The notes under the pieces were generated by a model. It was not told where the DNA came from and did no database searches. It saw only the letters and a list, made by a program, of their open reading frames with translations. A stretch of 19,819 nt of DNA, from the NCBI RefSeq assembly GCF_003334315.1, contig NZ_QOWR01000071.1, one strand, 5' to 3'. The stretch is from Escherichia coli. GTDB taxonomy: Bacteria; Pseudomonadota; Gammaproteobacteria; Enterobacterales; Enterobacteriaceae. Shown here one piece after another: positions 7,890-15,221 of this stretch; position 1 is the first letter of the stretch; each line of letters begins with the position of its first letter. Made by a program: the position numbers and the translations under genes.

Positions 7890-9725
<1,836 letters not shown>

Positions 9726-9988: not shown

Positions 9989-11089
9989 GTGATAATCATA
10001 AGATATCTGGTGCGGGAGACGCTCAAAAGCCAGCTGGCGATACTCTTCATCTTGCTTTTGATCTTCTTCTGTCAAAAGTTAGTGAGGATCCTCGGCGCAG
10101 CGGTTGACGGCGATATTCCGGCGAATCTGGTGCTCTCCCTTCTCGGGTTGGGCGTGCCGGAAATGGCGCAGCTTATCCTGCCATTAAGCCTGTTCCTCGG
10201 GCTGCTGATGACGCTGGGCAAACTGTATACCGAAAGTGAAATTACGGTAATGCATGCCTGCGGCCTGAGCAAAGCGGTTCTGGTGAAAGCGGCAATGATC
10301 CTTGCGGTATTCACGGCAATCGTCGCGGCGGTTAACGTGATGTGGGCGGGACCGTGGTCATCGCGTCATCAGGATGAAGTGTTAGCAGAAGCGAAAGCGA
10401 ACCCTGGCATGGCGGCGCTGGCGCAAGGGCAATTCCAGCAAGCGACTAATGGCAGCTCGGTGCTGTTCATCGAAAGCGTTGACGGCAGCGATTTCAAAGA
10501 TGTGTTCCTCGCACAAATTCGACCAAAAGGTAATGCACGTCCTTCTGTGGTGGTGGCCGATTCCGGACATTTAACCCAGCTGCGCGACGGCTCCCAGGTC
10601 GTCACTCTCAACCAGGGAACGCGCTTCGAAGGCACTGCACTGTTACGTGATTTCCGCATTACGGATTTCCAGGATTATCAGGCGATCATTGGTCACCAGG
10701 CGGTGGCGCTCGACCCGAACGATACCGACCAGATGGACATGCGCACATTATGGAACACTGACACCGATCGTGCTCGCGCAGAACTGAACTGGCGTATCAC
10801 GTTGGTATTCACCGTGTTTATGATGGCACTTATGGTCGTACCGCTGAGCGTGGTTAACCCACGTCAGGGACGCGTACTGTCGATGCTGCCAGCCATGCTG
10901 CTGTATCTACTTTTCTTCCTGATCCAGACCTCCCTGAAATCGAACGGCGGTAAAGGTAAGCTGGACCCGACGCTGTGGATGTGGACCGTTAACCTGATTT
11001 ATCTGGCTTTGGCGATTGTTCTCAACCTTTGGGACACCGTGCCGGTCCGCCGCCTGCGCGCCAGTTTTTCGCGTAAAGGAGCGGTGTGA
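9989..11089 (+). CDS. lptF: LPS export ABC transporter permease LptF
   Basis: 366-aa membrane ORF starting at GTG 9989 (MIIIRYLVRETLKSQLAILFILLL), immediately followed by lptG. Confidence 0.93.
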   Translation: MIIIRYLVRETLKSQLAILFILLLIFFCQKLVRILGAAVDGDIPANLVLSLLGLGVPEMAQLILPLSLFLGLLMTLGKLYTESEITVMHACGLSKAVLVKAAMILAVFTAIVAAVNVMWAGPWSSRHQDEVLAEAKANPGMAALAQGQFQQATNGSSVLFIESVDGSDFKDVFLAQIRPKGNARPSVVVADSGHLTQLRDGSQVVTLNQGTRFEGTALLRDFRITDFQDYQAIIGHQAVALDPNDTDQMDMRTLWNTDTDRARAELNWRITLVFTVFMMALMVVPLSVVNPRQGRVLSMLPAMLLYLLFFLIQTSLKSNGGKGKLDPTLWMWTVNLIYLALAIVLNLWDTVPVRRLRASFSRKGAV

Positions 11090-12171
11090 TGCAACCTTTT
11101 GGCGTACTTGACCGCTATATCGGTAAAACTATTTTCACCACCATCATGATGACGCTGTTCATGCTGGTGTCGCTGTCGGGCATTATCAAGTTTGTCGATC
11201 AGTTGAAAAAAGCCGGGCAGGGGAGTTACGACGCGTTAGGCGCAGGAATGTATACCTTGCTGAGCGTGCCGAAAGATGTGCAGATCTTCTTCCCGATGGC
11301 GGCTCTGCTTGGGGCGTTGCTTGGTCTTGGGATGCTGGCGCAGCGCAGCGAACTGGTGGTGATGCAGGCTTCTGGTTTTACCCGTATGCAGGTGGCGCTG
11401 TCGGTGATGAAAACCGCCATTCCGCTGGTCTTGCTGACGATGGCGATTGGCGAATGGGTTGCGCCGCAGGGCGAACAGATGGCGCGTAACTACCGTGCGC
11501 AGGCGATGTACGGCGGCTCGTTGCTCTCTACCCAGCAAGGCTTATGGGCGAAAGATGGCAACAACTTCGTCTACATTGAGCGGGTTAAAGGTGACGAAGA
11601 GTTAGGTGGCATCAGCATTTATGCCTTTAACGAGAATCGTCGTCTGCAATCCGTACGCTATGCCGCTACTGCGAAGTTTGACCCGGAACATAAAGTCTGG
11701 CGTCTGTCGCAGGTTGATGAATCTGATCTGACCAATCCGAAACAGATTACCGGTTCGCAGACGGTGAGCGGCACCTGGAAAACCAACCTCACGCCAGACA
11801 AACTGGGCGTGGTGGCGCTGGACCCGGATGCACTCTCCATTAGCGGTTTGCACAACTATGTGAAGTATCTGAAGTCGAGCGGTCAGGATGCCGGACGTTA
11901 TCAGCTCAACATGTGGAGCAAAATCTTCCAGCCGCTATCCGTGGCGGTGATGATGCTGATGGCGCTGTCGTTCATCTTTGGCCCACTGCGTAGCGTACCG
12001 ATGGGCGTGCGTGTGGTCACCGGTATCAGCTTCGGTTTTGTCTTCTACGTACTGGACCAGATCTTCGGCCCGCTGACGTTGGTTTATGGCATCCCGCCGA
12101 TCATCGGCGCACTGTTGCCAAGCGCCAGCTTCTTCTTAATCAGCCTGTGGCTGTTAATGAGAAAATCGTAA
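11089..12171 (+). CDS. lptG: LPS export ABC transporter permease LptG
   Basis: ATG at 11089 overlaps the lptF stop (GTGATG); product begins MQPFGVLDRYIGKTIFTTIMMTLFMLVSLSG, 360 aa. Confidence 0.93.
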   Translation: MQPFGVLDRYIGKTIFTTIMMTLFMLVSLSGIIKFVDQLKKAGQGSYDALGAGMYTLLSVPKDVQIFFPMAALLGALLGLGMLAQRSELVVMQASGFTRMQVALSVMKTAIPLVLLTMAIGEWVAPQGEQMARNYRAQAMYGGSLLSTQQGLWAKDGNNFVYIERVKGDEELGGISIYAFNENRRLQSVRYAATAKFDPEHKVWRLSQVDESDLTNPKQITGSQTVSGTWKTNLTPDKLGVVALDPDALSISGLHNYVKYLKSSGQDAGRYQLNMWSKIFQPLSVAVMMLMALSFIFGPLRSVPMGVRVVTGISFGFVFYVLDQIFGPLTLVYGIPPIIGALLPSASFFLISLWLLMRKS

Positions 12172-12289
12172 CCAAGCAAGGGAGCGAAAGCTCCCTTTCA
12201 CATTGTTGATAAAGTCAAATACGAGTTCGATCGGTCCCCTCGCCCCTTTGGGGAGAGGGTTAGGGTGAGGGGCACAGACCGCACCTGAC

Positions 12290-13792
12290 TTACCTTCTTC
12301 TCCCCCCCAGCAAACTCCCCAACATCCCGCGTACAATCTGATTCGTCACCTGGCGAGCGGCGCTTTTGGCCATTGTTTGCACCACACCATCTTTCTTCCC
12401 GCCGCGTGGTCCGGTAGTGCCAAACAAAATATCCTTCAATCCACCAAGAATACCGTCATCCACCGCCACCTCTTTCCCTTTCGCGGCAGGATTATTTTGC
12501 TGCTCGGTACTGGCCTGAAAGCCTTTTTGCAACATCTCATAGGCGGATTCTCGGTCCACCTCATCCTCATATTTGCCATACACCGGGGAGTGATTAATCA
12601 GGCCATTACGCTCATCTTCCGTCACCGGCCCCATTCGCGAACAAGGCGCGATCACCATCGCCCGCTCCACCACTGAAGGACTTCCTTTCACATCAAGAAA
12701 CGAGATTAACGCCTCGCCGGTGCCCAGTTCCTGAATCGCCTTTTCGGTATCAAACGCCGGATTGGCCCGCATGGTTTGCGCCGCAGCTTTTACCGCTTTC
12801 TGATCTTTGGGCGTAAAAGCACGCAAAGCGTGTTGAACGCGATTACCGAGCTGCCCGAGCACGTTATCCGGAATATCAGACGGGTTTTGCGAAACGAACC
12901 AGACGCCCACGCCTTTTGAGCGAATAAGCCTTATCACCTGCTCAATCTTATCCAGCAGTACCTGCGGTGCGTCATTAAACAGCAGATGTGCTTCGTCGAA
13001 GAAAAACACCAGTTTCGGCTTCTCCAGATCGCCTGCTTCCGGCAATTGTTCATACAACTCCGAGAGCATCCACAACAGGCTGGCGGCATATAGTTTCGGC
13101 ATCTGATAAAGCTTTTCGGCGCTGAGGATATTGATAACGCCTTTACCGTTGGCATCGGTGCGCATCCAGTCTTTGATATCCAGCATCGGCTCGCCAAAGA
13201 AATGCTCCGCACCTTGTTGCTCCAGCGACAGTAATCCGCGCTGGATGGCACCAACCGATGCGCTACTGATATTTCCGTACTGATTCTGGAAAGATTTGGC
13301 GTTATCGCCGATGTACTGGGTAATCGCCCGCAAATCTTTAAAGTCGAGCAGTAACAGCCCCTGATCGTCAGCAATGCGGAAGATGATATTCAGCACGCCA
13401 GACTGCACATCGTTGAGATTCAACAGCCGCGCCAGCAACAGCGGCCCCAGGTCTGAAACCGTCGCCCGCACCGGATGGCCTTTCTCGCCAAAGATATCCC
13501 ACACCACCACCGGATTGGCATGCGGTTGCCAGTCATTGACGCCGATATTTTTAAGCCTTGTGAGCAGTTTTTCCGACGCCGTTCCTGCCTGCGCGATACC
13601 GGTCAGATCGCCTTTCACATCAGCCATAAACACCGGCACGCCGATTTCCGACAATGACTCTGCCAGTTTTTGCAGCGTAACGGTTTTACCCGTCCCCGTT
13701 GCGCCAGTAATCAGCCCGTGACGGTTAGCCATTCCCGGCAGTAAAAACAGTTCTGTGTCCGGCGTGCGGGCAATTAACAGGGGTTCGCTCAT
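12290..13792 (-). CDS. yjgR: DUF853-family P-loop NTPase
   Basis: Walker A GATGTGKT near the N-terminus. Start placed at ATG 13792 ([16 protein letters not shown]), giving 500 aa, rather than the longer track ORF from 13840. Confidence 0.85.
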
Positions 13793-13891
13793 GAGATTTC
13801 CTCCAGTTTCCTGCCTGGAGTATAGGCAACGGCTGTGCACTCTTCACCGCTAAATTCAGCAGATTGCGAGACGCCTTCCAAAGAGATTTAA

Positions 13892-13915
13892 GTGCCGGGC
13901 GACAGGCACCCGGCA
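13892..13915 (-). terminator. Putative hairpin terminator downstream of ahr
   Basis: GC-rich inverted repeat tgccggg / cccggca (13893-13899 / 13909-13915), 7 bp 3' of the ahr stop; the minus-strand flank after it is moderately T-rich. Confidence 0.45.
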
Positions 13916-13921
13916 AAGGGA

Positions 13922-14941
13922 TCAGAAGTCGGCTTTCAGGACCACGCGGTAGCGCGCTTTACCATCGCGTACATGCTGGATGGCGTCGTTAATTTTCGAC
14001 ATCGGGAACAGTTCGGTGGTCGGCGCAACCTTGCTGCGGGCGGCAAAACGCATCAGCTTACGCAGCTCATAAGGCGTGCCGGTAGCAGAACCAGAGACGC
14101 TGCGATCGCCCGCAATTAACGTAAAGGCCGGAACAGACAGCGGCGTGAGAACCGCACCGACCGTATGGAAATTACCGCCATAGGTCAGCGCCTCAAAATA
14201 AGGCTGCCAGTCGAGGCTGACGTTGACGGTGTTGATAATGAGATCAAACTGCCCCGCCAGTGCTTTCAGTGCCTGCGGATCGCGGCTATTCACCACTTTA
14301 TCGGCACCCATCGCCAGTACTTCCTGCTCTTTCGCCGGATTAGAACTAAAGGCCGTCACCTCGCATCCCATTGCGTGCAGAAGTTTTATAGCGATATGCC
14401 CCAGCCCGCCAATACCAATTACCCCAACGCGGCTGGTAGCAGTGATATGGTGCATCAACAGTGGTTTAAAGACCGTGATACCACCACACAACAGCGGCCC
14501 GGCGGACTCGATATCAATATTTTCTGGCAGTGGAATCACCCATTGCCAGTCCGCACGCAACTTCTCGGCAAAACCACCACGATTCATAATTGTTGGCACC
14601 GCACCTTGCTCGCAGTTGATCTGATTACCGCTAATACAGGCGTCGCAGTGACCACAGCTACGCGCCGTCCAGCCAATCCCGACACGCTGACCGACCTGCA
14701 AACCTTTATCCTGCGCGGCGCTCCCGAGTGCCACCACGCGCCCAATCACCTCATGCCCGGCAACCAGCGGATATTGTGAAAATCCCCATTCGTTATCGAT
14801 CATCGACAGATCGGAATGGCAGATCCCGCAGTAATCCACCTGCACTTCAACATCTTGTGGCTTCAGCTCACCGGGATCGTACTCATAAACTTCCAGTTCG
14901 CCGCCCGCTTCTTTTGCGGCATAGCTTTTTATCATCGACAT
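13922..14941 (-). CDS. ahr: NADPH-dependent aldehyde reductase, zinc-type alcohol dehydrogenase family
   Basis: Start at ATG 14941 ([26 protein letters not shown]), 339 aa; contains the Zn-ADH motif [12 protein letters not shown] and the Rossmann motif [10 protein letters not shown]. Lies directly upstream of leuX as yjgB/ahr does in K-12. Confidence 0.9.
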
Positions 14942-15136: not shown

Positions 15137-15221
15137 GCCGAAGTGGCGAAATCGGTAGACGCAGTTGATTCAAAATCAACCGTAGAAATACGTGCCGGTT
15201 CGAGTCCGGCCTTCGGCACCA
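15137..15221 (+). tRNA. leuX: tRNA-Leu (anticodon CAA)
   Basis: GCCGAAGTGGCGAAATCGGTAGACGCAGTTGATTCAAAATCAACCGTAGAAATACGTGCCGGTTCGAGTCCGGCCTTCGGCACCA: cloverleaf with long variable arm, anticodon loop TTCAAAA giving CAA, and 3' CCA. Confidence 0.95.

Follow-up and report, generated by a model that had tools for sequence, protein, structure and literature searches.

What is the short GC-rich palindrome that lies between the convergent genes lptG and yjgR of Escherichia coli: a signal that serves its two neighbours, or one copy of a repeat that occurs elsewhere in the genome? The window considered here is the whole stretch of DNA that was analysed, 19,819 nucleotides of one E. coli contig. An original prediction, made from its letters only, had described an imperfect palindrome at 12236-12273, where the window indeed reads cccctcgcccctttggggagagggttagggtgaggggc, and had likened it to the small interspersed intergenic repeats of enterobacteria rather than to a canonical terminator. 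The convergent intergenic placement that was claimed for it is found as described: lptG, on the + strand, stops at 12171, and yjgR, on the - strand, at 12290; the same locus is annotated, and identical, in E. coli ATCC 8739, which confirms the identities of both genes. The intergenic spacer that separates the two stop codons is 118 bp long, and the element sits in it with 16 nt (12274-12289) between its edge at 12273 and the yjgR stop codon.

The dyad described in the prediction (ccctcgcccc / ggggagaggg) exists, but its pairing is not perfect, as there is one G.A mismatch, and a better, outer pairing is available between 12236-12245 and 12263-12272 (10 nt, 90% complementary according to the repeat finder). 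Because of this second, better pairing the element is seen to consist of three related arms, not two, of which one is C-rich and two are G-rich, with arm 1 able to pair with either G-rich arm (Table 1). The third arm, GGGTGAGGG, had been overlooked, as had the name of the family, its occurrence in wider taxa and the absence of this copy from K-12. Arms 2 and 3 together provide four G-tracts with 3-nt loops between them, and the stretch 12250-12272, GGGG-AGA-GGG-TTA-GGG-TGA-GGGG, conforms to the G-quadruplex motif of four tracts of at least three G with loops of 1-7 nt. The third arm therefore makes the element a potential intrastrand triplex as well as a canonical four-tract G-quadruplex motif. 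The 22-nt G-rich core, when searched with up to 3 mismatches allowed, occurs once in the window, compared with 0.00 occurrences expected from 200 shuffles.

The geometry of the pairing depends on the variable position of arm 1. As read from the sequence, the G at this position is mismatched opposite the A of arm 2 but can form a G.T wobble (G.U in RNA) with the T of arm 3, and the ‘mismatch’ type therefore favours the pairing of arm 1 with arm 3 in the outer hairpin rather than the inner hairpin. The minimum-free-energy folds of the + strand, calculated for the 51-nt core and for the 67-nt unit, also show the outer pairing. The folding energy of the 51-nt core as RNA is within the range of chance (z = -1.3 for the + strand, z = -1.2 for the - strand, compared with dinucleotide shuffles), because any sequence with a C-run and a G-run folds well, and these non-significant z-scores have been left out of the evidence.

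Table 1. Features of the lptG-yjgR spacer in window coordinates, followed by RNA 3' ends at BoxC copies in K-12 coordinates
Feature	Position	Strand	Basis or remark
lptG CDS	11086-12171	+	upstream convergent neighbour
Hairpin after lptG	12178-12185 / 12190-12197	+	8-bp GC-rich stem, GAAA loop, then TTTCACATTGTTG; -14.5 kcal/mol, z = -4.6, 0/200 shuffles as good
Whole BoxC unit with outer imperfect palindrome (..CGATCGGT / ACAGACCGCAC)	12218-12284	+	alignment of other copies, conserved flanks in the stack, allele alignments
Arm 1, C-rich, CCCTCGCCC	12237-12245	+	pattern match; variable position is G, the ‘mm’ variant
Loop 1, CTTTG, 5 nt	12246-12250	+	loop 1 has 5 nt in 17/23 K-12 copies
Arm 2, first G-rich, GGGAGAGGG	12251-12259	+	pairs with arm 1 by Watson-Crick bonds in the triplex model of Holder et al. 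2015
Loop 2, TTA	12260-12262	+	defines ‘type A’ (Holder) and HPG1 (Kaplan); TTA in 15/23 K-12 copies
Arm 3, second G-rich, GGGTGAGGG (12263-12271), plus G at 12272	12263-12272	+	mirror of arm 2; Hoogsteen strand in the triplex model
Predicted yjgR 3'-UTR stem-loop enclosing BoxC in C-rich orientation	12289-12214	-	-31.4 kcal/mol, z = -2.6, 0/200 shuffles as stable
yjgR CDS	12290-13840	-	downstream convergent neighbour
Term-seq 3' end at BoxC copy	164636	+	downstream of hrpB
Term-seq 3' end at BoxC copy	632098	+	downstream of cstA
Term-seq 3' end at BoxC copy	847200	-	
Term-seq 3' end at BoxC copy	3781065	+	primary, lldD
Term-seq 3' end at BoxC copy	3959467	-	ppiC side
Term-seq 3' end at BoxC copy	4231270	-	

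With virtual certainty, the element belongs, as a type-A copy, to the BoxC / PIT / TMECO family, a non-coding interspersed repeat of about 56-70 bp with a three-arm core. The sequence 12237-12271 (+) is an exact match to the pattern CCCTCNCCC-N3-6-GGGNGAGGG-N3-GGGNGAGGG, which occurs once in the window compared with 0.00 expected (200 shuffles), and this is the pattern by which TMECO has been defined (Holder et al. 2015, PMC4666352). According to the same paper, TMECO is the BoxC repeat reported in the 1990s and is also the same as the PIT (potential intrastrand triplex) elements of Hoyne/Maher 2000. Moreover, 12237-12272 agrees base for base with the TM oligonucleotide CCCTCGCCCCTTTGGGGAGAGGGTTAGGGTGAGGGG, a 36-mer that was examined by CD, NMR and DMS probing by Holder et al. 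2015 (PMC4666352), and the identical 36-mer is present at three K-12 loci. The ‘type A mm’ class, having a TTA loop 2 and a G at the variable position of arm 1, is the commonest type in K-12 (PMC4666352). When the element is compared with this class, the core pattern, the loop lengths, the TTA loop, the arm-1 G, the outer flanks, the intergenic position and the multi-copy nature are all shared, and there is no sequence difference. The arm-1 variant CCCTCGCCC, with G, is carried by 15 of the 23 K-12 copies and, among the matches listed, by 6 of 34 in viral contigs and 65 of 166 in genomes.

The family has also been rediscovered independently, as HPG1, for which a G-quadruplex/hairpin/duplex switch was proposed (Kaplan et al. 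2016, PMC5100583). The HPG1 consensus is the G-rich 21-mer GGGAGAGGGTTAGGGTGAGGG of the element, and its C-rich region ends 5 nt upstream of the 21-mer, such that HPG1 and BoxC are one element under another name and with another structural hypothesis; the paper itself reports no link of HPG1 to any known motif (PMC5100583). The copy between lptG and yjgR is not among the 23 BoxC copies of K-12, because K-12 carries another allele of this spacer. Holder et al. mapped 63 TMECO loci in 56 strains (PMC4666352), and the gene names lptG and yjgR are not found among the entries listed from the supplement of that paper. In Rfam 15, a scan at the gathering thresholds gives no family over the element, the best sub-threshold match (E-value up to 10) reaching 22.5 bits compared with a threshold of 94. 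Elsewhere in the window, the Rfam family Ysr276 (‘Yersinia sRNA 276’) is strongly matched at 8970-9164 with 175 bits, inside the coding region of pepA, and because of this position the match is probably due to conservation of the coding sequence rather than to an RNA gene of its own.

The original prediction had proposed a genome-wide search for relatives and had named single-copy status as the observation that would speak against an interspersed repeat. When this search is done with a 61-nt query, each of the 5,426 complete E. coli genomes has matches, at 19 places in the median genome and at no more than 36 in any, so that the palindrome does belong to a multi-copy interspersed family, and to one that already has a name. 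K-12 MG1655 has 23 strict copies at 18 loci (all loci listed by Kaplan et al. were fetched), in agreement with the numbers of Holder, and at 5 of these 18 loci type A and type B copies occur as inverted pairs. All the K-12 copies are intergenic, with 9 of the 18 strict loci between tandem, 7 between convergent and 2 between divergent genes; the family is therefore found mostly downstream of genes, as is the lptG-yjgR copy.

The repeat unit is longer than the 36-nt core. When 16 type-A copies are stacked, the conservation extends into the flanks as ..cg..CGGT[core]GaAcag..cg, with an A-rich stretch preceding the left part, and the conserved left and right flanks together make up an outer imperfect palindrome. 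Other genomic copies align to 12230-12284 with about 93% identity. The extension of the core as an imperfect palindrome gives a unit of about 56 bp, and lengths of 56 and 50 bp have been given for BoxC in the literature. In many type-A copies, including the window copy (12206-12235) and six of the retrieved loci, an A-rich left extension like TGACAAAGTCAAAAA is seen some 20-30 nt before the core, and a similar AGCAAAGT is kept at the breakpoint of the K-12 REP allele. This extension may belong to the repeat unit, or it may represent a preferred target site or a remnant.

Within E. coli, the lptG-yjgR spacer exists in two forms, in which two unrelated repeat families alternate at one site. The BoxC allele, when defined by a 95-nt query over both junctions that is at least 80% covered, is present in 1,742 of 5,426 genomes (~32%), and the K-12 REP-type spacer, at the same coverage, in 3,581 of 5,426 (~66%), such that the BoxC and REP-like alleles jointly account for ~98% of the E. 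coli genomes. In MG1655, the spacer is 160 bp long (4488401-4488560, which is 8402-8561 of the retrieved K-12 stretch) and the REP-like GATAAGACGCGCCAGCGTCGCATCAGGC replaces BoxC. The segment of the window that differs from K-12 is 12218-12273 (56 bp), and the hairpin close to lptG as well as the sequence adjoining yjgR are common to both alleles. A further variant is observed in strain WP2-W18-ESBL-08 (NZ_AP021933.1, around 436-495 of the retrieved stretch), where the GGGTTA unit in the BoxC of the same locus is expanded by 24 bp; the expanded copy reads GGGGAGAGGG(TTAGGG)5TGAGGGG, which is a run of the vertebrate telomere hexamer. This expansion is a small example of the instability that Holder et al. 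associate with TMECO loci (PMC4666352).

The window strain and K-12 also differ beyond yjgR. In both the window and ATCC 8739, ahr comes directly after yjgR and is itself followed by a tRNA-Leu gene (15137-15218), the region compared being 13841-13921. In the retrieved K-12 stretch (10065-14623), yjgR is followed by idnR, idnT, idnO, idnD and idnK, a block that the window strain does not have at this position.

BoxC and the REP/BIME elements are both short, GC-rich, palindromic interspersed repeats of the spacers downstream of genes. However, they have no sequence similarity, and REP is a two-arm palindrome with another consensus. An Rfam scan by E-value of 12100-12400 gives no REP-related match. 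For REPs, a mobilising enzyme has been proposed, and for BoxC we know of none. REP elements are also credited with the stabilisation of mRNA and the protection of its 3' end. Two tandem matches to Rfam naRNA4 (REP325-type), with 83.7 bits each, are found in the window at 7965-8040 and 8061-8136, away from the element.

A separate hairpin lies between lptG and the element. It had been placed at 12179-12196 in the original prediction, and it is real, although it extends slightly further, over 12178-12197. This hairpin, which is kept in both alleles of the spacer, is a probable imperfect intrinsic terminator of lptFG, separate from BoxC, and it is a likelier terminator of lptG than BoxC is. The terminator consensus scan does not call it, because its T-run is short. 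The spacer as a whole has no terminator-like and no promoter-like site according to the promoter/terminator scan.

A hint at what a transcribed BoxC may do comes from K-12, in the curated Term-seq 3' ends that Adams et al. 2021 list (PMC7815308, supplementary file 1). At least six K-12 BoxC copies have Term-seq 3' ends at or just past their outer end, in both orientations, these being plain coincidences of position (Table 1). When the listed 61-nt sequences are folded, the ends at 3959467-, 3781065+ and 164636+ are located no more than about 1 nt from the last paired base, and the other three are 5-18 nt past the folded structure. The ilvC transcript continues past a BoxC copy and has its end behind the following hairpin (3959531+), which shows that a BoxC copy is not always an end point. 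K-12, which is without BoxC at this site, has no 3' end for lptG or yjgR in the table. For the read-through of lptFG, a Rho-dependent region has been mapped at 4488692+, inside yjgR and antisense to it, and Rho-terminated RNAs are trimmed back by exonucleases according to Adams et al. 2021 (PMC7815308). No paper that links BoxC to RNA 3' ends was found in the open-access literature searched.

The best overall explanation, which we consider likely, is that the lptG-yjgR palindrome is a copy of the BoxC family with a passive effect at the RNA level and with no locus-specific regulation; a passive effect on 3' ends is regarded as the most likely one because of the Term-seq ends at the K-12 copies. 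BoxC would then be a tolerated, repeat-derived insertion in a transcriptionally harmless spacer between convergent genes. Transcripts of yjgR would run into it, as would those lptFG transcripts that pass the weak upstream hairpin, and the transcribed BoxC with its outer flanks would fold into a very stable stem-loop, by which 3'-to-5' exonucleases would be blocked or the transcript ended, such that the mRNA 3' end would be defined. We infer that exonucleases are blocked at BoxC, rather than that transcription is terminated there. On the yjgR side, the predicted 3'-UTR structure is a single long stem-loop that begins directly behind the yjgR stop codon (Table 1). By analogy with the K-12 copies, it is an evenly balanced possibility that BoxC marks or protects the 3' end of the yjgR mRNA, and the presence of a REP-like element at the same spot in the other allele fits such a 3'-end-protecting role. 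A dedicated regulatory role at the lptG-yjgR locus is probably absent.

An alternative, which we consider rather unlikely, is that BoxC is a non-autonomous mobile element, MITE-like or REP-like, which is spread by a recombinase or transposase and in which the structure serves mobility, not the host. This is suggested by the identity of the copies within a genome (~90-100% over ~55 nt), by the presence/absence polymorphism at orthologous sites and by the very uneven copy number: E. coli strains have 1-29 copies, Enterobacter asburiae has 143 and Salmonella has none (PMC4666352). It is also suggested by the wide distribution of the pattern, which extends beyond the enterobacteria that the original prediction had named. 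Both collection scans (viral contigs; one genome per species) gave at least 120 matches each, which provide example taxa, not a distribution. Among the matches listed for one genome per species, the full pattern is found in a Candidatus Methylomirabilota MAG, in Candidatus Contendobacter and in the betaproteobacterium Mitsuaria chitosanitabida, which accounts for most of them, has very many copies and has many of these as inverted pairs ~100-200 bp apart. The plasmid records with matches include those of Klebsiella, Enterobacter, Pantoea, Aeromonas, Rhizobium, Sinorhizobium and Azospirillum. It is the exact three-arm sequence, not merely the structure, that is shared with a betaproteobacterium and with a non-proteobacterial phylum. 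The loose pattern GGGNGAGGGNNNGGGNGAGGG alone was rejected as too unspecific, as it catches (GGGCGA)n-like tandem repeats in viral contigs.

Against a mobile element, the stacked flanks display only the imperfect outer palindrome, no association of TMECO with transposons, phages or plasmids was seen by Holder et al. (PMC4666352), and homologous recombination between strains could replace the alleles without any transposition. A mobile origin is nevertheless compatible with the passive 3'-end effect described above. More boldly, an enzyme may carry this three-arm sequence unchanged between phyla, from the Enterobacteria and the Burkholderiales as far as the Methylomirabilota.

In the model of Holder et al., the G-rich strand of an opened duplex forms an intrastrand purine-motif triplex, which stalls polymerases and makes the locus prone to rearrangement. 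For the identical 36-mer, the CD spectra are indeed of the triplex type and 18 sharp imino signals are seen by NMR; the melting temperature of the type A mm oligonucleotide is 74 C (PMC4666352), and DNA polymerase is blocked in vitro by PIT elements, as reported in the part of PMC4666352 that summarises earlier work. The locus is also variable, with its BoxC and REP alleles and the 24-bp (GGGTTA) expansion in one strain, in line with the higher variability that was found around TMECO loci than at control sites (Holder et al., PMC4666352). However, in vivo DMS footprinting gave no protection of the central G-tract (PMC4666352), and the published studies of PIT elements, as far as they are summarised in that paper, describe no in vivo effect and no effect on RNA polymerase, reverse transcriptase or conjugation. 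Moreover, the insertion or loss of a mobile or recombining element gives the same variability without any structure, and the BoxC allele is stable enough to persist in 1,742 genomes. As an account of the lptG-yjgR copy, the triplex model is therefore judged unlikely. Concerning TMECO and intrastrand triplexes, no new functional study was found in the literature after 2015.

Kaplan et al., in their HPG1 model, propose instead a switch between G-quadruplex, hairpin and duplex that regulates the neighbouring genes. The canonical four-tract motif with its 3-nt loops, GGGG-AGA-GGG-TTA-GGG-TGA-GGGG, is present in the element; CD supports hairpin and quadruplex forms alike, according to Kaplan et al. 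(PMC5100583), and the calculated free energies of the two forms are close (PMC5100583). The Term-seq ends at 3959467- and 847200- lie 0-2 nt beyond arm 3, which would agree with a structure of that arm in the RNA. For the same oligonucleotide, however, the NMR data of Holder et al. argue for a triplex (PMC4666352). The C-rich arm is carried by most of the genuine family members among the matches listed for viral contigs, though a quadruplex needs no such arm, and degenerate copies in which a G-tract is broken still have Term-seq 3' ends (847200-, 4231270-, 632098+). Both neighbouring genes end towards the element and no promoter-like site is called close to it, such that a switch would have no obvious target, and we consider a regulatory switch at this locus very unlikely. 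The triplex and quadruplex models have both been published for this exact sequence, and neither has in vivo support.

It is equally improbable that the element acts as a bidirectional intrinsic terminator, lacking a U-tract, for yjgR and/or lptG. BoxC does resemble an intrinsic terminator in being a GC-rich stem-loop just past a stop codon, at a distance of 16 nt in the case of yjgR, and stable stem-loops are predicted on both strands; the RNA 3' ends at the K-12 copies would also be accounted for. Yet, as the original prediction had pointed out, it is no canonical terminator. The stem is followed by GCACAGACC on the + strand and by ACCGATCGAA on the - strand, with no U-run on either, and the terminator scan makes no call on the element. 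In addition, PIT elements had neither promoter nor terminator activity in reporter tests, as far as these are summarised in PMC4666352, a BoxC copy is passed by the ilvC transcripts, and the ending of the lptFG read-through in the Rho-dependent region (4488692+) fits Rho termination followed by trimming. A BoxC-like arm pair with a T-run, TTTAGGGTGAGGGATAACCTCGCCCTTTTT, precedes the K-12 Term-seq 3' end at 2945855- (Adams et al. 2021, PMC7815308) and has the appearance of a usual intrinsic terminator. Finally, a chance GC-rich palindrome without relatives is refuted by the median of 19 places per genome, the published identical member and the expectation of 0.00 in the window, even though the folding energy of the core lies inside the range of shuffled sequences.

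The palindrome between lptG and yjgR is thus an already known repeat, ordinary and without a new signal, and the original prediction was right about its kind. The literature holds at least four descriptions of BoxC, each under another name; for annotation, BoxC copy is the useful label for the element, in place of terminator or regulatory site. Only two observations are mildly new, namely that BoxC and REP alternate as alleles of this spacer and that published Term-seq ends coincide with BoxC copies. Taken together, the two alleles of the spacer and the Term-seq ends at no fewer than six K-12 copies point to the tentative idea, for which we see some but less than even likelihood, that BoxC elements may provide E. 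coli with another class of structures, besides REP and exchangeable with it, by which mRNA 3' ends are defined or stabilised. The spacer is a clean natural pair of BoxC and REP alleles, usable for testing the stabilisation of mRNA 3' ends against the destabilisation of DNA.
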